DNA from: Patescibacteria group bacterium UBA926
GTDB taxonomy: Bacteria > Patescibacteriota > Doudnabacteria > UBA920
Direction: 5' to 3'
DNA: 64,000 nucleotides
NCBI GenBank assembly: GCA_002293685.1
Contig: DBDS01000006.1
Span: forward strand, 180,909-244,908
The stretch's first letter is position 1, and each line of letters starts with the position of its first letter. The notes beneath the pieces were generated by a model. The model was not told the origin of the DNA. It saw only the letters and a list, made by a program, of their open reading frames with translations, and ran no database searches. Positions 1,283-59,866 of the stretch are shown in pieces. Position numbers and translations under genes: made by a program.

Positions 1283-1726
1283 ATGAAAATAGTAATAGAT
1301 ACAAATGTTATCATCGATGGAATTAAAGATGATTACTCATACGAAAAACAGATTCTTGACGCAGTGATTTCAGGGGAAATTGAAGCTTACGCAAATCACG
1401 GAACTTTGAGTGAGAATAAACTCATCATGAAGCAACTCATTAATGATCCAAACTACGCCGAGGAAATCAATAACTTGTTCGCGCAAATCAACATGGTGCA
1501 AAACCGTCGGCAAATAAATATTGTCCGCGACCCTGAAGATAATAAAATTTTAGAAAGCGCTGTTGAATCAAAGGCGGACTACTTAGTAACCCGCGATAAC
1601 GATTTACTCTCGCTAGGAAAGTACGAAGATATTCAAATAGTAAATCCATCTCAGTTCTGGGTGAGATACAAAGACGAGAGCAATGACACTTGGAAAGAAT
1701 GGGCAGGATTCTTTGCTGGAAAATAA
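1283..1726 (+). CDS. PIN-domain nuclease, putative toxin-like (TIGR00305-type)
   Basis: MKIVIDTNVII start and VTRDNDLL near C-terminus typical of PIN family. Confidence 0.55.
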   Translation: MKIVIDTNVIIDGIKDDYSYEKQILDAVISGEIEAYANHGTLSENKLIMKQLINDPNYAEEINNLFAQINMVQNRRQINIVRDPEDNKILESAVESKADYLVTRDNDLLSLGKYEDIQIVNPSQFWVRYKDESNDTWKEWAGFFAGK

Positions 1727-1728
1727 AA

Positions 1729-1752
1729 AAGCGAGTGGAAGCACTCGCTAAT
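1729..1752. terminator. hairpin terminator between convergent PIN gene and minus-strand small gene
   Basis: agcgagtg gaag cactcgct flanked by A/T runs. Confidence 0.45.
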
Positions 1753-1777
1753 ATCAACTGAACTTGTCTTAACCTGC

Positions 1778-2050
1778 TCAACGTTCAATTTTTGTGTAAG
1801 AAATTACAAAAGAAATGGTCCCGTCCAATTCATAAGTTCCGCCGACAGCCTCCCCTAACACAAAACTATCAGCTCCATCAGGAACAGTTACATGATCAAA
1901 ATAAATTTCCTGAGGCTCATCACCTTCACCAGCAGGGAGCTCAATAAGTGTTGGTAACTCAACTAGGAATGCTCTAACCTCTCCATTTTGAAACTCACCA
2001 TCAATACCGAACTTACCAGGCTCATTCGCTGGAATTAGTCTCTTCAACAT
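1778..2050 (-). CDS. hypothetical small acidic protein
   Basis: ORF with AGGAGG RBS 8 nt upstream of ATG at 2048-2050; no recognisable family. Confidence 0.35.
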   Translation of the reverse strand: MLKRLIPANEPGKFGIDGEFQNGEVRAFLVELPTLIELPAGEGDEPQEIYFDHVTVPDGADSFVLGEAVGGTYELDGTISFVISYTKIER

Positions 2051-2107
2051 AATTTTTCCTCCTAACTTCATACTAAAGGTAGCTTATTATAAAATTTTTA
2101 CTAAACT

Positions 2108-5107
2108 ATGTCAACTCTTCTCGAAAATTTAAATAAAGAGCAGCTCGAGGCGGTCACCCATAAGGATGGTCCGCTTTTGATTATTGCTGGTGCGGGTACT
2201 GGAAAGACCACGGTCATCACGCGTCGGATTGCATACATTCTCGAGCAAGAACTGGCTAAGCCTGAGGAAATTCTTGCTCTAACTTTTACTGATAAAGCGG
2301 CAGGTGAAATGGAAGAACGAGTCGATCAGTTACTCCCGCTAGGTAGTTATGATTTATGGATTTCGACATTCCATAGTTTTTGCGAACGAATTCTAAAACA
2401 ACATGGCTTACATATCGGTTTACCTAACGACTTTAAATTATTAGATAAGACCAAACAGTGGGTTTTTCTGCACAACAATTTTTCTAAATTTGAACTGGAT
2501 TACTACAAACCACTGGGCAATCCAAATAAGTTTATTGATGCGCTGATAGATCATTTTTCAAAGTGTAAAGACGAACTAATTACTCCTGAAGATTACGCAC
2601 TCCATGCAAAAAAACTTCTTGAAAAGAAAAACCCAGACGAAGACGAACAAATGGAAGCGGCTCGGGTTAACGAAATTGCAAAAGCATACCAAACTTATCA
2701 GCAGCTTATGCTTGATAACGGGTATTTGGATTTCGCCGACTTAATTTGGTACACAATTGAATTACTAAAACGTCGTCCAAACATTCGCAAACTGTACCAA
2801 CAGCAGTTTAAGTTTGTGATGGTTGATGAATTTCAAGATACAAACCTTGCACAGTACGAATTGATTAAGTTACTTACTGATAGTGTCATCCTGAGCACAG
2901 CGAAGGATCCCAAAAGTGATTCTTCGGCTTCGCCTCAGAATGACGTCAAACGAAAATCAGTGAAAGATATTGGTCCCAATTTAGTAGTAGTAGGCGACGA
3001 CGACCAGTCAATTTATAAATTCCGCGGTGCTTCTGTTTCGAATATACTCAAGCTCAAAACTGACTATCCAAGCCTAAAAGAACTAACTCTAATCGATAAT
3101 TACAGAAGCAGTCAGCCAATCTTGGACTTGGCTTATAACTTTATTCAAGCTAATAATCCAAATCGTCTCGAACCGAAGTTGGGGATAAATAAACGCTTAA
3201 AAGGTCATAATAAAGCCAAAAGTACTATCACAGTAATTGAAGGGAAAGATTTAAACGAGGAGCTGAACTTAGTTGTTGATAAAATTTTAGACCTCAAAGA
3301 TGCTCATCCAAACTCAAGCTGGAATGATTTTGCAATTCTCATTCGCGCTAACAACACAGCAGGTGAAGTAATTCCTGTCCTCGAAGCTAAACAAATTCCA
3401 TACAGCTTCGTTGCCAACAAAGGCTTGTATAAAAAGCCACTTATTGCGGATATAATTTCTTATTTAAAATTGCTCGATAATTACCACGAATCGGACGCAC
3501 TTTATAGAGTTCTAAATTTCCCCAAATTTAAGTTACCCGCGCTCGAACTAGCTCACTTAACACAATTTACCAAACGTAAAGCTCACTCACTTTATCAAGC
3601 TATGCACGAACAGGAAGCCCTTGCTGAACTTACTGAAGATTCGAGAAACATAATAGGACTGTTACTCAAATTTCTAGAGGAGCATGCTAAATTATCCACC
3701 GAAAAATCCGCAATTGAATTTTTCGTGCAGATGGTTTCTGACTTAGGAATTGACCAAATACTCATCAAAGAAACTTTAGAAAATGCTCAAAATCGAGAAA
3801 TGCTTGAACAGTTCTACAAACGTATCGAAACTTACACACAAGAAAATGATGATAGAACCATGAGAGGTTTCATGAATTACCTCAAGCTCGAGCAAAATGC
3901 AGGGGAAGAGGGTACAATCAAATTCGATCCGAATAGTGGTCCCGAATCACTCAAAATAATGACAATTCATAGCGCTAAAGGCTTAGAATTCGAATACGTA
4001 TTTTTGGTTAGTATGGTTGACCAAAAATTTCCTTCGCGGTCACATAAAGATGCCATAGAAATCCCTGAACCATTAATCAAAGATATATTGCCAGAAGGTG
4101 ACTTTCATCTTCAGGAAGAACGAAGATTATTTTACGTTGCGGTGACGCGTGCCAAAACTCACTTGTATCTTTCTTGGGCATTGGATTATGGCGGAGCTCG
4201 TTCAAAGAAACCATCTCTGTTCTTAACTGAGACTGGTTTGGTGCCTACTGAAAACGCCCACAAAGCGACGGGTAAGGTTGTATTTACTAAATCAAAGACT
4301 AAAGCCAAGCAAGTTGTCTACAAACAATTGCCAGACAAATTTTCGTTTAGTCAGCTGTCCACATTCCAAAAGTGCCCGCTCGAATACAAATATGCTTATT
4401 ATCTAAGACTACCTATGCCGGGCAGCCATTATCTTAGTTTTGGCTCAACCATACACGCAGTTCTGGAAAGATATCTGCAAGCTTACCAATTTAGCCTCGA
4501 AACCTCTAAATTAGAAATTGCAGAACTGAAAACTGATAGAAAATTACCTCCACAAAACTTATTAAATGATTTATTTGAATCTGAATGGATTGATGATTGG
4601 TATAAAAGTCATGAACAAAAAGAGCAATATCGAGCTCGGGGTTTAAGTATTCTGAAAACTTTTTACAAAGCAACTTCGGAGAATATTCCGAAACCAAAAC
4701 TCATCGAACAACCATTTTCATTAAAACTAGGGAACAAGCAACAATACTTATTTAATGGAAAAATAGACCGTGCTGATTCTATGGATTCAGGGTTAATGAT
4801 TATTGATTATAAAACTTCTGAAAAAGTTCCATCCCGCACAGACACTAATGATGTGAATCAGCTACGAATTTACCAGTTGGCCTGTGAAGAATTCTTTCAT
4901 GAAAAGGTTGCAGGATTACAATATTGGTACCTTGTGCCAAACGAAACAGTGGCGGTTAAACTAGCAACACCTGAAGAACTTCAAAAATTAAAGCAAAGTT
5001 TAACTGATACAATAGAACAAATCAGAGACACTGTAAAATACGACCGATTTGCAGAGCTTCATAAGAAATCCAAAAAGCATGATTGTAATTACCTAGATTT
5101 GATATAA
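2108..5107 (+). CDS. UvrD/PcrA-like ATP-dependent DNA helicase fused to C-terminal PD-(D/E)XK (RecB/AddB-like) nuclease domain
   Basis: Walker A GAGTGKTT, motif II DEFQD, motif III VGDDDQSIYKFRGA, motif VI VAVTRAK; C-terminal DYKTS nuclease core with Cys residues. Confidence 0.8.
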   Translation: MSTLLENLNKEQLEAVTHKDGPLLIIAGAGTGKTTVITRRIAYILEQELAKPEEILALTFTDKAAGEMEERVDQLLPLGSYDLWISTFHSFCERILKQHGLHIGLPNDFKLLDKTKQWVFLHNNFSKFELDYYKPLGNPNKFIDALIDHFSKCKDELITPEDYALHAKKLLEKKNPDEDEQMEAARVNEIAKAYQTYQQLMLDNGYLDFADLIWYTIELLKRRPNIRKLYQQQFKFVMVDEFQDTNLAQYELIKLLTDSVILSTAKDPKSDSSASPQNDVKRKSVKDIGPNLVVVGDDDQSIYKFRGASVSNILKLKTDYPSLKELTLIDNYRSSQPILDLAYNFIQANNPNRLEPKLGINKRLKGHNKAKSTITVIEGKDLNEELNLVVDKILDLKDAHPNSSWNDFAILIRANNTAGEVIPVLEAKQIPYSFVANKGLYKKPLIADIISYLKLLDNYHESDALYRVLNFPKFKLPALELAHLTQFTKRKAHSLYQAMHEQEALAELTEDSRNIIGLLLKFLEEHAKLSTEKSAIEFFVQMVSDLGIDQILIKETLENAQNREMLEQFYKRIETYTQENDDRTMRGFMNYLKLEQNAGEEGTIKFDPNSGPESLKIMTIHSAKGLEFEYVFLVSMVDQKFPSRSHKDAIEIPEPLIKDILPEGDFHLQEERRLFYVAVTRAKTHLYLSWALDYGGARSKKPSLFLTETGLVPTENAHKATGKVVFTKSKTKAKQVVYKQLPDKFSFSQLSTFQKCPLEYKYAYYLRLPMPGSHYLSFGSTIHAVLERYLQAYQFSLETSKLEIAELKTDRKLPPQNLLNDLFESEWIDDWYKSHEQKEQYRARGLSILKTFYKATSENIPKPKLIEQPFSLKLGNKQQYLFNGKIDRADSMDSGLMIIDYKTSEKVPSRTDTNDVNQLRIYQLACEEFFHEKVAGLQYWYLVPNETVAVKLATPEELQKLKQSLTDTIEQIRDTVKYDRFAELHKKSKKHDCNYLDLI
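2885..2944. repeat. GC-rich palindromic repeat unit pair (GTCATCCTGAGC..GAAGGATC / GATTCTTCGG..CAGAATGAC) inserted in-frame in helicase CDS
   Basis: 60 nt = 20 codons; the two arms are an imperfect inverted repeat, separated by 7 nt; same family as intergenic copies. Confidence 0.6.
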
Positions 5108-5230: not shown

Positions 5231-5890
5231 ATGATCCCAGGATTTGATTTACCAGAATTAGTTCGTGCCGTCGGATACGTTGGTCTCTTTGGCATAGTCT
5301 TCGCTGAAACCGGTCTCTTAATAGGTTTTTTCCTCCCTGGGGACAGTCTATTATTCACAGCAGGTATTCTGGCTGGTCAAGGCTACCTAAATATTTACAC
5401 TACATTATTGGTCCTAATCTCTGCGGCAATCATCGGTGATAGTGTTGGTTACGCAATTGGTAAAAAGCTGGGCCCTAAAGTGTTCAAAAAAGAAAACTCA
5501 ATTCTGTTCAACAAAAAGCACATTGATAAAGCTCAGGCATATTTCGACAAGTACGGTGCGATGACAATAGTAATTGCTCGATTCGTGCCAATTGTTAGGA
5601 CTTTTGCACCAACCCTCGCTGGTGTAGGTAAAATGAATTACGGAAAGTTTTTGTTTTATAACATCAGTGGTGGTTTATTTTGGGTTTTATCAGTTACTTT
5701 ACTCGGATATTATCTCGGCATCAAAGTTGCAAATATCGAAGCGTTCATTATCCCGGGAATTATCATAATCGTACTAATTTCTATTTCACCTTACATATAT
5801 AAATTCTTAACAAACCCAAATATAAGAGAAGCATTAAAAAATCACTTAGTACAAATTTATCGAAAAGTTTGGCCAGTAAAACTTCCATAA
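5231..5890 (+). CDS. DedA/SNARE-associated family membrane protein
   Basis: GLFGIVFAETGLLIGFFLPGDSLLF signature, multi-TM. Confidence 0.7.
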   Translation: MIPGFDLPELVRAVGYVGLFGIVFAETGLLIGFFLPGDSLLFTAGILAGQGYLNIYTTLLVLISAAIIGDSVGYAIGKKLGPKVFKKENSILFNKKHIDKAQAYFDKYGAMTIVIARFVPIVRTFAPTLAGVGKMNYGKFLFYNISGGLFWVLSVTLLGYYLGIKVANIEAFIIPGIIIIVLISISPYIYKFLTNPNIREALKNHLVQIYRKVWPVKLP

Positions 5891-5892
5891 CT

Positions 5893-6285
5893 ATGGCAAA
5901 GAACGCAAAACAATTTGAAGAACGTCCGTGGGGGAATTTCTCGGTATTGAGTGAGCTTTCATATGAGGGTAATAATCGAGATGTTATTATTAAAAGATTA
6001 GAAATTCTACCTGGAAAGCGAATTTCTTACCAACAACACAAGCTTCGTCACGAACACTGGTTCGCAATATCTGGAAGTGGTTTTGCAATCATCAATGATG
6101 AAAAGATTGAGTTAAAAGCAGGAGAGAGCGTACAAATTAACATAGGCGATAAACATCGTATAGATAATAGACAAGGCACTGAACCATTAGTAATAATTGA
6201 AATCACTACAGGAGAATTCGATGAATACGACAATGAACGCCTTGAAGATGATTTCAATCGCGACTCAAATTGGAGAAATGAATAG
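5893..6285 (+). CDS. cupin domain protein (mannose-6-phosphate isomerase type II C-terminal-like)
   Basis: ERPWGNF...HWFAISG...GDKHRIDN cupin motifs; ATG at 5893 preferred over overlapping TTG at 5869. Confidence 0.5.
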   Translation: MAKNAKQFEERPWGNFSVLSELSYEGNNRDVIIKRLEILPGKRISYQQHKLRHEHWFAISGSGFAIINDEKIELKAGESVQINIGDKHRIDNRQGTEPLVIIEITTGEFDEYDNERLEDDFNRDSNWRNE

Positions 6286-6322
6286 GTTTGTGTTATAATT
6301 AACAAACCTAATTACCAAAGCA

Positions 6323-6697
6323 GTGCTCCACGCTACCACAAAAAAATACCTCTTGCCCTTGATATTCGGCAGCTCGGTAGCAACAGCTGGCTTAGTTTTG
6401 GTTCTTGCATTCGTTGACCCTTACACGTCTGGATGGATAGGACACTTCTTTCTCTATTGCACATTATTTTTGGCAACTACCGGTATCGCAACAACTATAA
6501 CATTGCTTTTACGACAGAGCTTCTTTCCAGGAATTTATGCGGAACTTTTCCGTGTGAGCTTAAGACAAGGGGTATTGGTGGCAATCTTGTTAAGTGGTCT
6601 TGTCTTTCTTGAAGCACAAAATTTTCTTTACTGGTGGGTAGGGCTTACATTCGCACTATTCTTAATAGCCATTGAATCATTCTTTTCGGCAAACTAA
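6323..6697 (+). CDS. hypothetical integral membrane protein
   Basis: four predicted hydrophobic helices; no family recognised. Confidence 0.35.
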   Translation: MLHATTKKYLLPLIFGSSVATAGLVLVLAFVDPYTSGWIGHFFLYCTLFLATTGIATTITLLLRQSFFPGIYAELFRVSLRQGVLVAILLSGLVFLEAQNFLYWWVGLTFALFLIAIESFFSAN

Positions 6698-6715
6698 ATC
6701 TGAAATTATAAACAA

Positions 6716-10365: not shown

Positions 10366-10455
10366 GTGTAAAAGTAGTGGTTTAGTAAGGAATAATTTGC
10401 TATAATTTAGGTAGTTATTTAGCCACTATTTTGGCTAATTTTTAAGTAAATTCAG

Positions 10456-12600
<2,145 letters not shown>

Positions 12601-13031: not shown

Positions 13032-13260
13032 GTTAACAATGAACCTCCTTTAAATTCAAAATCTAACCAAAATTTACTCAAATAATTATACATTGTCAAC
13101 CAATTGACTTATATGTCTAAATAAAGTATTATTTATTCAAAGCCCCGAAGCGGGTTTTAAAAAAGCTTCAGATTACTTTAAAATCTGGCTTAATTAAAGG
13201 GAATATGACAAATTAGATCCCGCACTCGCTATGCCCGTTCGGGATGAATGCATACATAAT

Positions 13261-13443
13261 ATGAATAAAGTTATTCAATTTTTTAAAGAAGTTAAAGCAG
13301 AATTATGGAAGGTAGTTTGGCCAAGTCGCCGCGACGCAATCCGTTACACTATCACTATCCTTGTCTTTTCTTTAGTAGTCGCTGCCATTCTTGGTGCCGC
13401 TGACTTTGGATTATTAAAAGGCTTCGAGGCCTTGATTAACTAA
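13261..13443 (+). CDS. secE: preprotein translocase subunit SecE
   Basis: FFKEVKAELWKVVWPSRRD + single TM; position before nusG. Confidence 0.7.
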   Translation: MNKVIQFFKEVKAELWKVVWPSRRDAIRYTITILVFSLVVAAILGAADFGLLKGFEALIN

Positions 13444-14037: not shown

Positions 14038-14104
14038 GTCATTCTGACCCCGCACTTGATGCGGGGGAAGAATCCCATAGATCCTTCACTGCGTTCAGGG
14101 TGAC
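14038..14104. repeat. hairpin repeat, GTCATYCTGA...GAAGRATC family
   Basis: gtcattctgaccccgca..gcgggggaagaatc + gatccttcactgcgttcagggtgac. Confidence 0.55.
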
Positions 14105-14178
14105 ACAACAATTAATAAGTAGTCGGTTCCGGTTAAGACTTGGAATCTCGCCGCTAATAACGGTTACTACTCAACACA

Positions 14179-15109: not shown

Positions 15110-15163
15110 GTCGTCCCGGCAGCCACAAGACTTGCCTTGCAAATCGCGGGCTAGCCGGTATCT
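15110..15163. repeat. repeat GTCRTCCCGGCAGCCACAAG...GCGGGCTAGCCGGKATC, copy 1
   Basis: near-identical to 23122-23165. Confidence 0.6.
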
Positions 15164-15253
15164 AAATAATAGATCCCTGCTTTCGCAGGGATTACTACCA
15201 TTAATAAGTGGGACCCTGAGCTCAGCCGAAGGGGCAGACCACTAAAGGAATTT

Positions 15254-23121: not shown

Positions 23122-23165
23122 GTCATCCCGGCAGCCACAAGCGAAGCGCGGGCTAGCCGGGATCC
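23122..23165. repeat. repeat GTCATCCCGGCAGCCACAAG...GCGGGCTAGCCGGGATC, copy 2
   Basis: near-identical to 15110-15163; upstream of rplI. Confidence 0.6.
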
Positions 23166-25681: not shown

Positions 25682-25986
25682 AGCCTTATCGTATATCTCC
25701 GCATGTAGATTGCACAGAACTCAATCTGCCGTTCTTCACACAAAGTTAATTATCTATATTAAATGAGCGACTCGATAATTGGACTAGCAGAAAACTGTTC
25801 AATTAGTGAGTTGCCTAAAAGATAATGGTTTCTCGGTTGCGGCGAATTCGAGGAGCCAGTGAGCAACGAGCGAAGCGTACTTATAGGTACGCAGAGCGAG
25901 TAGCGGAGCTGGTGACAAAGAAGTCGCCCAAAGCTGTACGGAAGTCCGGACTTGTTCCGGACAGTAGTACAGCGACCGAGGAAGCA

Positions 25987-35140: not shown

Positions 35141-35269
35141 CTCGGACCGAGCGAAGTCCACCAAAATCTCGTTTAGATTTTGGGCGTACGGAGCGAGAAT
35201 GAGTTAAAAGTATCCCCAGAAGCCCGAAGGGCTATCCGGGGTCTAGATCCCGAGGCCCCACCAGGGATT
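35141..35269. repeat. repeat cluster: core D copy (cgaagtccaccaaaatctcgtttagattttgggcg) followed by family C copy 2
   Basis: sequence similarity to 43117-43172 and 1220-1277. Confidence 0.5.
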
Positions 35270-35334
35270 ACTTACAAACTATGCCGTCGTAGATCCCGGA
35301 CAATCCTCACTGCGTTCGGATTTCCAGGAATTCT

Positions 35335-36849: not shown

Positions 36850-36940
36850 AACTAAAATATACTATATTTATGCGGATTTTTCAAGGAATTTTTGTCATTC
36901 CTAAAAAGTATTCCTGGACGGCTGAAGTGTTTCAAGGTAA

Positions 36941-37007
36941 GCATTCCCGGAAGCCCAAAGGGCTATCCGGGATCTGTGGTTGAGACCCCGGCCTTCGTCG
37001 GGGATAC
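36941..37007. repeat. repeat family C, copy 3
   Basis: tcccggaagcccaaagggctatccgggatctg..gaccccggccttcgtcggggatac. Confidence 0.55.
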
Positions 37008-37053
37008 TGTGCTTCGACCGGAATTCTTCTGTACGTTCAGGATAACAAAGTGA

Positions 37054-43109: not shown

Positions 43110-43212
43110 GTCATTCTGAACGAAGTCCTTCTAAATCTTGTAGAGATTTTGTGCGGACTTAGTGAAGAATCTCAACATAGATCCTTCGGTTGCTTCGCTC
43201 TCTCAGGATGAC
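43110..43212. repeat. composite MITE-like element (GTCATTCTGA arm + CGAAGTCC..AAATCTTGTAGAGATTT core + GATCC..CAGGATGAC arm)
   Basis: inverted terminal arms and internal hairpin; core shared with 35141-35203 and 58945-58995. Confidence 0.55.
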
Positions 43213-43289
43213 AGTGCTTAAAAACGCTTGCTAGGGATGACATACTCTCAACTCAACTATAAAACCGTCCCCTTAAGGACGGTTTTATA

Positions 43290-44930: not shown

Positions 44931-45037
44931 GATTAATCCTTTCTTTAGATTGATTTGATTACAAATCAATCCTGATTTAGCCTCCGGCCATCGACCTTAA
45001 ACCGGAATAAAAAATAATAAAAAGCAATAAGAAATTT

Positions 45038-52114: not shown

Positions 52115-52579
52115 TCAATGCACGTCTGATATTTCACAATGCATTTGATTAATGGAAATTTCATCACCCACCTCTTTTCCCAAGCATGCTTGAGCAAGTG
52201 GGGCAGCGACTGAAATACTTACTACCTTAACCCCATCAATAGTAATCTCTTCACCCCCAGAACTAGTAACCAAGTAATACATCTTTCGCTTCTTGGTTAG
52301 TATGTCTGTGAGCTCAAATACCGCTCCTAGATAAACTTTATCCTGAGAATTTGCTTGCAATCTACCTAGCGACGAAATCACCTCGCGCAAATCACCTAAC
52401 TGTCGACTTTGAGCCAAAGCTAGATTACTAAGCGAAAATTTATTAGTATCAGAATGACTCACATTCGCACCCGGAGAATCCCACGCCCGCTTTTTATTGC
52501 CTTCGATGGACTCAGTAATAGAGCTTAGTATCTCCTTATACCGTTCCAAAAATTTAGACCTGACAGTTTCTTTATCCAT
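52115..52579 (-). CDS. GreA/GreB C-terminal (FKBP-like) domain protein, Rnk-like
   Basis: C-terminal ...ITIDGVKVVSISVAAPLAQACLGKEVGDEISI matches Gre C-domain; AGGAGG RBS before MDKETV. Confidence 0.4.
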   Translation of the reverse strand: MDKETVRSKFLERYKEILSSITESIEGNKKRAWDSPGANVSHSDTNKFSLSNLALAQSRQLGDLREVISSLGRLQANSQDKVYLGAVFELTDILTKKRKMYYLVTSSGGEEITIDGVKVVSISVAAPLAQACLGKEVGDEISINQMHCEISDVH

Positions 52580-58916: not shown

Positions 58917-59026
58917 GATCCCCTCTTCTCCTCGCTTCGTCAACACAAAATCTCTACAAGATTTAGACGGACTTCGCTCTCAGACCAGAGATGACATCAG
59001 AGATCCTTCGCTACGCTCAGGATGAC
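58917..59026. repeat. composite MITE-like element, inverted copy of the 43110-43212 type
   Basis: cacaaaatctctacaagatttag is reverse complement of core at 43127-43149; ends atgtcatcctgagcgtagcgaaggatc (rc). Confidence 0.55.
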
Positions 59027-59093: not shown

Positions 59094-59172
59094 CACCTCG
59101 TTGCAGAACTCATGGATCCCCGGTCGGTCGCTTCGCGACCACCGAGGATGACATCTGTACGAGGTGATAGTT
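59094..59172 (-). terminator. long hairpin terminator of hup with repeat unit in the loop
   Basis: atcacctcg...cgaggtgat outer stem, T-run on minus strand. Confidence 0.45.
59115..59152. repeat. hairpin repeat unit embedded in the loop of the hup terminator hairpin
   Basis: gatccccggtcggtcgcttcgcgaccaccgaggatgac. Confidence 0.5.
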
Positions 59173-59721: not shown

Positions 59722-59792
59722 GGGCCCGATCCGGTGATAACACTAGGGTCGACACCTAAGTGTTGGCGGTTCAACCCCGCTCGGGTCCACCA
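59722..59792 (+). other. tRNA-like element: 7-bp acceptor-like stem, T-arm-like hairpin (GGCGG TTCAACC CCGCT), ACCA 3' end, but no D or anticodon arm
   Basis: gggcccg pairs with cgggtcc; T-loop-like TTCAACC; 8-bp hairpin with CTAA loop replaces D/anticodon arms. Confidence 0.3.
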
Positions 59793-59866
59793 GATTGACA
59801 TGCGTACGTTTAAATGCTAAGTTTGAAATGTCGATCCTAGTGTTATTTGTCCCGAACCGGACAAAG

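Follow-up and report, generated by a model that had tools for sequence, protein, structure and literature searches.

Hairpin repeats of a Doudnabacteria genome as a probable sequence class of the Ssn-related repeat kind

A family of short hairpin repeats is scattered through a 64,000-nucleotide stretch of the metagenome-assembled genome (MAG) of Patescibacteria group bacterium UBA926, a member of the Doudnabacteria (assembly GCA_002293685.1, contig DBDS01000006.1, forward-strand positions 180,909 to 244,908). This whole stretch is referred to here as the window, its first nucleotide being position 1, and the account centres on one inverted doublet of the family at 43110-43212. We conclude, with good though incomplete confidence, that the repeats are hairpin repeats of the Ssn-related kind, known as NTS and SRM motifs, and that they form a distinct sequence class within it. 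This kind of repeat has been known since 2025; what is new is the variant sequence class, a host in the candidate phyla radiation (CPR), insertion polymorphism and an in-frame insertion into a gene, and the advance is a modest one.

Ssn-type nucleases were described by Chenal et al. (Nat Commun 2025; PMC11893778), whose characterised system comprises SsnA and three other homologues. [quoted passage not shown] The NTS is a directional extension of the dRS3 repeat and accounts for about 50% of the dRS3 repeats of Neisseria, where Ssn lowers transformation by NTS-bearing DNA. At least one SRM is found near 71% of SsnA homologues, with SRMs on both sides in 42%; 81% of genomes with more than 200 SRMs encode an Ssn homologue, and the SRM-richest genomes include Rickettsia. 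The authors liken the NTS-ssnA-NTS arrangement to an insertion sequence and compare it with repetitive extragenic palindromic (REP) elements and their REP-associated tyrosine transposases (RAYT) (PMC11893778). Their description left open what role the repeats play outside Neisseria and whether the repeat-gene-repeat unit is mobile.

Architecture of the repeat unit

The basic unit is GTC, followed by a hairpin closed by A-T pairs and then by C. An unpaired 5' head, (T)GTC, precedes a stem that begins with an A-T and a T-A pair (ATYCN.../...NGRAT), and an unpaired C lies directly 3' of the stem; the interior is variable, and stems often have G.A mismatches in tandem and, at their tip, a GCGNAGC mini-hairpin. 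In its simplest form the unit is 25 nt long, GTCATYCTGAGC-NNN-GCGAAGRATC, as at 2885 (plus strand) and 59026 (minus strand). With flanks this becomes T-GTCATYCTGAGC-GNA-GCGAAGRATC-T, and the minimal unit with T on either side can be written T-GTCATCCTGAGCGAAGCGAAGGATC-T. In the 25-nt form a 3-nt loop is closed by a stem of five Watson-Crick pairs, two G.A mismatches in tandem and two G-C pairs.

Units occur singly (23122, 59115, 10455-10513), in tandem (58917-59026) and as inverted doublets with outward heads and a short spacer (2885-2944, 14038-14104, 43110-43212). The arrangement GTC-AT...AT-C is found at 2885, 14038, 23122 and 43110 on the plus strand and at 2944, 43212, 59026 and 59152 on the minus strand, and variant heads are GTCAC (14104, minus), GTCG (15110, plus), GTCT (10513, minus) and the GTA or GTT of a third subfamily. 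Several units hold a second hairpin nested in the loop; its core is AAATCT...AGATTT in 43110-43171 and in 58917-58995, and CCTGAGGCGAAGCCGA in 10455-10513. The second subfamily (15110, 23122) retains head and C around an ATCCCGG stem; the third (1214-1282, 35205-35275, 36939-37010) has degenerate GTT/GTA heads on both strands. The copies listed below comprise strict matches together with manual curation, a less strict hairpin search (GTN[AGT]T head, closure of 4 bp) having been dropped as too loose after returning 75 matches against 28-63 in shuffled sequence. Loci used for comparison carry L numbers.

1214-1282, no single strand: third-subfamily composite with GTT/GTA heads on opposite strands, between NYN and PIN genes (repeat finder, fold)
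2885-2944, no single strand: inverted doublet of 60 nt in a helicase open reading frame (ORF), with units at 2885-2909 (plus) and 2918-2944 (minus)
10455-10513, minus: single unit GTCTTCCCGGG...CCCGGGATC with nested CCTGAGGCGAAGCCGA core in the gyrB 5' leader, 3' of a conserved TTG-N-TATAAT promoter-like box
13216-13251, minus: degenerate single unit GCATTCATCCCGAAC...GCGGGATC directly 5' of the secE start codon; weak fold
14038-14104, no single strand: inverted doublet between nusG and rplK, with units at 14038-14074 (plus) and 14080-14104 (minus)
15110-15162, plus: second-subfamily unit GTCGTCCCGGCAGCC...GGCTAGCCGGTATC upstream of rplA (sequence, fold)
15172-15195, minus: minimal CCC-class unit GTAATCCCTGC-GAAA-GCAGGGATC (sequence)
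23122-23164, plus: second-subfamily unit GTCATCCCGGCAGCC-..GCGAAGC..-GGCTAGCCGGGATC, 8 nt upstream of the rplI (Ribosomal_L9) start codon (fold z -3.85)
35141-35203, plus: free-standing nested core module with weakly terminus-like ends (repeat finder, fold)
35205-35275, no single strand: third-subfamily composite including unit GTAATCCCTGGTGGGGCCTCGGGATC at 35246-35271 (minus) (repeat finder, fold)
36939-37010, no single strand: third-subfamily composite upstream of gltX (repeat finder, fold z -4.35)
43110-43171, plus: left unit of the focal doublet, GTCATTCTGA...GAAGAATC, with nested hairpin CGAAGTCC-TTCTAAATCT-loop-AGATTTTGTGC-GGACTT in its loop (sequence, ssDNA fold)
43180-43212, minus: right unit of the focal doublet, GTCATCCTGAGAGAGCGAAGCAACCGAAGGATC, inverted with its head outward, completing a 103-nt doublet with 43110-43171
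43225-43241, minus: solo head fragment GTCATCCCTAGCAAGCG beside the focal doublet, inside the stretch absent from the related locus L210; probably the remnant of a further unit
58917-58995, minus: nested-core unit GTCATCTCTGGTCTGAGAGCGAAGTCC...GGGGATC (repeat finder, sequence)
59002-59026, minus: minimal unit of 25 nt in its canonical form, GTCATCCTGAGCGTAGCGAAGGATC, placed in tandem with 58917-58995; at least 120 loci from many phyla hold the identical pattern
59115-59152, minus: single unit GTCATCCTCGGTGGTCGC-GAA-GCGACCGACCGGGGATC (fold z -3.79)

An initial annotation of this DNA had described a GC-rich family with terminal arms GTCATYCTGA...GAAGRATC, a conserved core and two further subfamilies, and the sequence bears that description out: all 15 intervals that it named contain what it reported. 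The 64 kb contain seven exact copies of GTCATYCTGA, where dinucleotide shuffles give 0.21 +/- 0.46 and none of 100 shuffles reached seven. Six of the seven matches are parts of elements; the seventh (52449-52458) lies within greA, lacks a closing arm and is probably due to chance. The count of GAAGRATC by itself (nine matches, 5.5 expected) is not significant, and this motif is informative solely as a closing arm. The shared core was recovered independently by a repeat finder, 43118-43168 and 58929-58979 being 84% complementary over 51 nt and 35149-35197 and 58931-58979 being 78% complementary over 49 nt; the nested core of 43110-43171 recurs at 35149-35197 and 58929-58979, and also in locus L213. 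The two second-subfamily copies agree at 19 of 20 nt at the 5' end and 16 of 17 nt at the 3' end, and the third subfamily is a direct family of three copies with 78-86% identity. Elements are richer in GC (0.43-0.70) than the window as a whole (about 0.40). Most copies fold as ssDNA better than their shuffles (z -2.2 to -4.4), with three exceptions: 58917-59026 (z +1.4), 13214-13253 (z -1.35) and 43110-43212 when read on its minus strand (z -1.5).

We also observed a GC-rich imperfect palindrome (...GAGCGAAGCGTAC-TTATAG-GTACGCAGAGCGAG...) at 25832-25916, between rpmA and a DNA methyltransferase gene. It has a minus-strand GTCAC head, had not been listed before and could be related to the family in diverged form.

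Distribution, covariation and flanks

A 25-nt pattern with 22 specified positions was found in at least 120 stretches, where we estimate that about 0.3 chance matches would be expected in 596 Gb. The stretches bear labels of Nitrospirota, Chloroflexota, Acidobacteriota, Bacteroidota, Bacillota, Planctomycetota, Verrucomicrobiota, Omnitrophota, several proteobacterial classes, Cyanobacteria, Saccharibacteria, Gracilibacteria and others, and cultured isolates are among them. Nearer to hand, the expectation of further copies in the same genome was borne out by six more units within 10 kb past the end of the window (L213, same organism), lying between rpsD, rpoA, rplQ and rplM.

Among 151 exact units, T occupies position -1 in 80% and position +1 in 79%, the free loop triplet is G-N-A (G in 85%, A in 95%), and an inverted terminus lies within 140 nt of 54%. 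Clear compensatory changes support the hairpin, as had been anticipated: positions 6 and 22 covary, with 86 C-G and 62 T-A pairs against 5 mismatches (148 of 153 Watson-Crick). The same is seen in 97 distinct units from protein-anchored loci (described below), where Watson-Crick pairing at three stem pairs holds for 93, 92 and 93 units, with eight triplet types represented; these units were retrieved through a protein and therefore were not selected on the DNA motif. Their stem mismatches show no preference for G-U wobble (four G/T against nine others). Together with the DNA-type GNA tip of the mini-hairpin, this gives an indirect hint that single-stranded DNA may be the form acted on.

The flanks of 50 doublets revealed no target-site duplication at k = 1 to 7 (direct flanks agreed in 1, 1, 0, 0... 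cases for k = 1, 2, 3, 4) and a single 8-nt match. Inverted flanks are enriched (39, 17, 9), such that the flanks tend to extend the palindrome. In five loci (L015, L025, L030, L083 and L119, of Acidobacteriota type plus one Saccharimonadales-labelled contig) doublets are nested in a second inverted repeat, GGCTGCGGAAAAA...TTTTTCCGCAGCC, which suggests insertion into, or co-mobilisation with, another palindromic family.

A GIY-YIG nuclease gene bracketed by the repeats

All ORFs of 120 motif-bearing loci were clustered without preselection, and the clusters consisted mostly of housekeeping genes plus one small family of GIY-YIG proteins (PF01541) of about 95 aa. The GIY-YIG gene is bracketed by units in L032, L090 and L101, while L017 has a frameshifted copy with two units after it. 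Metagenome contigs were then scanned with the ~95-aa protein, giving 583 confirmed loci, the best 80 of which were analysed. Across these 80 loci the density of terminus motifs is 5.33 per kb within 200 nt of the gene, 0.24 per kb beyond 600 nt (a 22-fold difference) and 0.07 per kb in shuffles; a terminus lies within 200 nt in 57 of the 80, on both sides in 39 and with heads outward in 25. The flanking units are of the CTGAG/CGAAG class seen in the window, with variable interiors.

The associated proteins are 92-110 aa long and PF01541 is their sole consistent domain, although some weakly overlap PF10544 (T5orf172). The family numbers at least 7,976 proteins of 92-110 aa, including CPR members (Parcubacteria, Wildermuthbacteria and Gracilibacteria). 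Its genes often lie on very short contigs, which is expected because they are flanked by repeats. The L101 protein is 47% identical to that of L032, and its flanking units satisfy the published SRM pattern. In L032, a Gracilibacteria MAG, a segment of about 200 nt (unit plus CCGTACTCCCAGTACACC...) forms three tandem copies directly upstream of the GIY-YIG gene (5740-6700), and the 3' end of the gene enters another unit, the ORF ending in a repeat-encoded DSSLRSE.

Gains at orthologous sites

Syntenic loci of relatives, with helicase identities of 84%, 82%, 74% and 73% and an MltG identity of 72%, were compared with the window, and at six orthologous sites the elements are absent or different. 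At the focal site, L210 has convergent MltG and EamA genes 43 nt apart, with a terminator hairpin in the spacer; the window keeps the terminator and has about 165 nt extra, absent from L210, made up of the 103-nt doublet and some 60 nt of spacer. A 69-nt element occupies the NYN-PIN junction of the window, where in L005, L006 and L007 the stop codon of NYN overlaps the PIN ATG and in L214 another doublet is found, including a unit (GTCATTCCCGCGAAGGTGGGAATC) that is nearly the Neisseria NTS. In the gyrB leader the window, L005 and L007 each have a different hairpin element at the same position, 3' of the conserved promoter-like box: a canonical doublet in L005 and an unrelated GC hairpin in L007. 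The secE leader and the nusG-rplK spacer hold an element in the window and none in L005 or L007; in the latter spacer the downstream rplK leader is conserved in both relatives, which lack the doublet. On this comparative evidence the copies are lineage-specific insertions, apparently recent, gained at different sites in different Doudnabacteria lineages.

Three observations concern the surroundings of these sites. A segment upstream of rplK, AGTAGTCGGTTCCGGTTAAGACTTGGAATCTCGCCGCTAATAACGGTTACTACT (~14120-14175), is nearly identical in L005 and L007 and is probably a ribosomal-protein operon leader; the element was inserted just 5' of it, without disturbance. At secE (13150-13300) the element directly follows an apparent ancestral start (ATG ACA AAT TAG) and is itself followed by a second ~12-nt copy, AATATGAAyAAA, in which the present start codon lies. 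The possible ~12-nt duplication (AATATGAxxAAA) makes secE the sole site with a possible duplication of its flanks. Between the PIN gene and the helicase the window has about 370 nt (1727-2107) with a 97-aa minus-strand ORF (1778-2071) and a terminator-like hairpin; the corresponding gap is ~0-8 nt in L005, L006 and L007, and a reverse ORF of 77-95 aa is present there in L214 and L215.

The sixth site lies within a gene. The 2885-2944 doublet stands in frame in a 999-aa UvrD/PcrA-like helicase ORF (2108-5107) and adds 20 codons, encoding VILSTAKDPKSDSSASPQND, between motif II (DEFQD) and motif III (VVGDDDQSIY). A decayed copy is present in L006 and none in L007 or in most homologues (977 aa). 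At the same place L214 (ORF 1501-4512) carries three in-frame hairpins of the CCCCT...AGGGG type (SPPNKGELEGVESKTSPDPSLKGGEH) and L215 (ORF 1501-4497) a different in-frame GC palindrome (TLTRPSGHPLPEGEGRGEG), and several other homologues of this UvrD/PcrA-PD-(D/E)XK helicase have inserts of 4-19 residues in the motif II-III loop. The loop is a repeated landing site.

Homologues of the helicase and of MltG bear the names Candidatus Doudnabacteria or Patescibacteria. One organism, that of the window, recurs in several metagenomes. When L001, L002 and L003 (the same organism from three metagenomes) were compared, their differences amounted to N-runs and 1.2% substitutions, with no informative presence or absence of elements. 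The N-runs fall at the same place (~6030-6350, upstream of the window start) in all three independent assemblies, which is consistent with a repeat breaking assembly there.

Assignment of the repeats and rival explanations

Several results weigh against placing the repeats with the Ssn-related kind. The published SRM pattern, HGTCWYN(0-2)YYVSBRHN(0-5)WNVSBRGN(0-2)RNCYNB, has no match in the window (0.06 in shuffles) and lies within 250 nt of the GIY-YIG gene at none of the 80 loci; it matches the Neisseria NTS consensus and not the canonical CTGAG unit. Because this operational definition fails, membership rests on architecture together with gene association, and the assignment of the third subfamily is weaker because its heads are degenerate (GTT/GTA). 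The association itself is shown for one subclade only, since the 80 loci are the best matches to it, and its proteins are candidate members of cd10448 and putative relatives of Neisseria SsnA. Furthermore, no Ssn-like gene was detected in the 64-kb window, in some 10 kb past each end (about 84 kb of contig) or in the relatives' loci, where the best profile hidden Markov model E-value was 0.9 and the Pfam lists contain no GIY-YIG domain. As to mobility, what the 2025 study demonstrates is cleavage together with an influence on transformation, and not transposition (PMC11893778); mobilisation by Ssn is at present hypothetical.

The SRM pattern does match NTS-like units in L007, L013, L033, L101, L102 and others; NTS-like and CTGAG units coexist in L013, L033, L101 and L102, and two relatives among the Doudnabacteria, L007 and L214, likewise have NTS-like units. 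Gene-less doublets such as 43110-43212 share their end architecture with gene-carrying elements in other genomes. Taken with the GIY-YIG association, these findings argue for the assignment to the Ssn-related kind. Under this assignment the doublets would be non-autonomous derivatives, spread in trans by a nuclease of Ssn type encoded elsewhere in the genome or formerly present, either via an ssDNA intermediate or through cleavage-stimulated repair, and their main effect on the host would fall on ssDNA transactions (recombination, incoming DNA) and not on transcripts. A further proposal, which we put forward tentatively and hold at somewhat less than even, makes mobile elements of these gene-less doublets with outward heads: lacking autonomy, they would be copied in trans by GIY-YIG nucleases of the Ssn type through an ssDNA hairpin route without target-site duplication.

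The initial annotation had proposed that the repeats act as regulatory or terminator modules or as small RNAs, and a wider version of this reading would make them terminators, mRNA stabilisers or translational regulators near start codons. Every element in the window does sit in a region that is probably transcribed (5' leaders, operon spacers, convergent 3' ends), the hairpins are stable, and several copies, with GGAT/GGGA as their 3' arm, stop 7-15 nt short of a start codon. The leaders and spacers concerned, however, lack elements in close relatives, so that the repeats are not conserved regulatory parts. Nor does the focal doublet lie inside a terminator, one of the locations that had been claimed: it sits between the EamA stop codon and a separate hairpin (~43261-43288), the real terminator, which is conserved in relatives that have no element. 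No T-tract follows the units, both orientations occur, one copy lies within an ORF and the stem mismatches show no wobble bias. A gathering-threshold Rfam scan of the whole window gave no match, and in E-value scans around 43110, 44970 and 59700 the matches were no better than chance. In addition, the partner enzyme of the closest known motifs acts on ssDNA and not on RNA (PMC11893778). We thus regard an RNA-level role as unlikely, with side effects on mRNA stability or translation possible.

Where the copies lie bears on the same question. Gene calls with precomputed Pfam domains, spanning the window and 10 kb on each side, revealed neither a transposase nor a GIY-YIG gene; they confirmed gyrB, secE, nusG, rplK, rplA, rplI and gltX, so that the genes which the initial annotation had named as highly expressed neighbours (gyrB, secE, rplK, rplA, rplI, gltX) were correctly identified. 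Its statement that copies lie upstream of them does not extend to 35141-35269, which is downstream of gltX, or to the intragenic copy at 2885-2944, which is likewise the one exception to an intergenic location. Placement near such genes more likely reflects which short spacers tolerate insertion.

[quoted passage not shown] Classical REPs, or their paired form, REPINs, mobilised by a RAYT, a HUH enzyme of the Y1 type whose target is a hairpin with a conserved head in front of it, would account for the short head and hairpin, the inverted doublets, the intergenic location and the absence of target-site duplication, and the REP table of Nunvar (PMC2817692) indeed shows head-plus-palindrome units. 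Yet all REPs in that table begin with GTAG or GTGG (GT[AG]G), whereas all canonical units here begin with GTC-AT. No Y1 transposase domain (PF01797) occurs among the called genes of the window and its 10-kb margins, ORF clustering around the 120 units recovered GIY-YIG genes and not Y1 transposases, and REP sequences are species-specific where the 25-mer is identical across phyla. Classical REPs are hence very improbable here.

Cut-and-paste MITEs of an insertion sequence with a DDE transposase, for which the 25-nt unit would serve as terminal inverted repeat, we judge the least credible of the explanations weighed. Doublets do resemble an inverted repeat-spacer-inverted repeat of 65-131 nt (5th-95th percentile) with TG...CA ends, and spacers can be common to families within one genome (L112). 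Against this stand the lack of duplication at k 1 to 7 in the 50 doublets (apart from the one 8-nt match), the frequency of single and tandem units, and the absence of a DDE transposase between or near units, the bracketed gene, where there is any, being a GIY-YIG nuclease.

Other candidates were rejected. An autonomous element between distant inverted units was sought in L073, which holds groES/groEL, and in L109, which holds housekeeping genes, and neither contains a transposase. A resemblance to the hammerhead core was dropped because the required core nucleotides are lacking, and one to the IncP nic-site ATCCTG is a 6-mer coincidence within the stem.

Other features of the window

In all four lineages compared, the leader of a PF05552 (MS_channel_1st_1) gene holds the conserved motif TTATTCCGG-N5-6-AGGTCGATGRCCGGAGGCTAAATC (window 44970-45037, minus strand; L208 1174-1283; L209 1894-1999; L210 1930-2039). 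Rfam returned nothing for it even at E<=10, and it could be a cis-regulatory RNA. Between the HU and sortase genes, 59722-59846 contains a 39-nt imperfect inverted repeat enclosing GGCGGTTCAACCCCGCTCGGGTCCACCA, which resembles the T-arm and acceptor 3' end of a tRNA or tmRNA with CCA; Rfam gave no match, and a tRNA/tmRNA scan of the whole window with ARAGORN found none. Literature searches with sequence strings (GTCATCCTGAG and similar) returned primers and unrelated matches only, and searches on palindromic or MITE repeats in Patescibacteria or CPR bacteria returned nothing relevant.

Significance

The window adds to the 2025 description a second major sequence class, missed by the published pattern, whose 25-nt unit is identical across many phyla. 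It adds comparative evidence for copies gained at different sites in close lineages without target-site duplication, with certain positions hit repeatedly (gyrB leader, NYN/PIN junction, a presumed surface loop of the helicase), together with an in-frame insertion into a conserved helicase and an occurrence in CPR bacteria. For annotation, it matters that the units give rise to small ORFs that are spurious (VILSEAKDL..., ...SLRSG*, ...LRMT) and cause breaks in assemblies. The 2025 paper proposed ssDNA cleavage tools, for which the repeats also offer candidate enzyme/site pairs. If doublets are indeed copied in trans, they would represent a new mechanistic class of transposable or homing element, distinct from DDE, HUH, serine- and tyrosine-recombinase elements. 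Such a class, its 25-nt end almost invariant, would extend over most bacterial phyla, would be active in reduced CPR genomes and could remodel proteins by in-frame insertion, as Rickettsia palindromic elements (RPEs) do.

Comparison with known systems

The closest likeness is to the NTS and SRM repeats. Both are directional hairpins with a GTC head, a stem of ATTCC/ATCCC type closed by A-T, a short purine-rich loop and a C after the stem. Both are hairpin-forming inverted repeats of 20-50 nt, and the T at position -1 (80%) fits the published H; both occur in hundreds of copies, mostly intergenic, around genes and in many phyla, and both bracket a single-domain GIY-YIG gene of about 94 aa (for the CTGAG class, in other genomes). 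The window differs in its stem class, ATYCTGAG...CGAAGRAT, with tandem G.A mismatches and a GCGNAGC tip, in its often long nested hairpins and in its frequent gene-less heads-outward doublets. One window copy is in frame within a gene, whereas the NTS is rarely intragenic (2%); the window has no ssn gene, and the CTGAG class is known from sequence alone. The host is a Patescibacteria MAG, a group unnamed in the main text of PMC11893778, whose searches used NCBI representative/reference (RefSeq) genomes.

With REP/REPIN-RAYT systems the repeats share a head and hairpin recognised as ssDNA, inverted doublets, clustering between genes and an absence of target-site duplication; for REPs, spread by a single unlinked domesticated enzyme has been proposed (PMC2817692; discussion of PMC11893778). 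They differ in that REPs have GTAG/GTGG heads, a Y1 HUH transposase and lineage-specific sequences, as against a GTC head, a GIY-YIG protein and sequences identical across phyla. RPEs are palindromic repeats that enter protein-coding genes in frame, lengthening the product by a peptide segment while the gene survives (PMC10969869), which is the likeness to the helicase insertion; RPEs are about 150 bp long and have consensus families of their own, and the window offers one in-frame case. Elements of the IS200/IS605 group of insertion sequences, which transpose as single strands by 'peel and paste', and their derivatives, the palindrome-associated transposable elements (PATEs), likewise have subterminal hairpins read on one strand, cleavage beside the hairpin, no target-site duplication and non-autonomous hairpin-ended derivatives. 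In IS200/IS605, however, both ends are processed on the same strand by an HUH enzyme and insertion follows a specific tetranucleotide, whereas the heads of the window doublets lie on opposite strands and the sole conserved flank is the T at -1. Finally, d(GCGAAGC) and d(GCGNAGC) reportedly form extra-stable DNA mini-hairpins, as described by Hirao and colleagues in the 1990s. The tip of the canonical unit, GC-GNA-GC, is of this form; the motif belongs to physical chemistry, is not a genetic element and accounts only for why the tip would favour folding as DNA.

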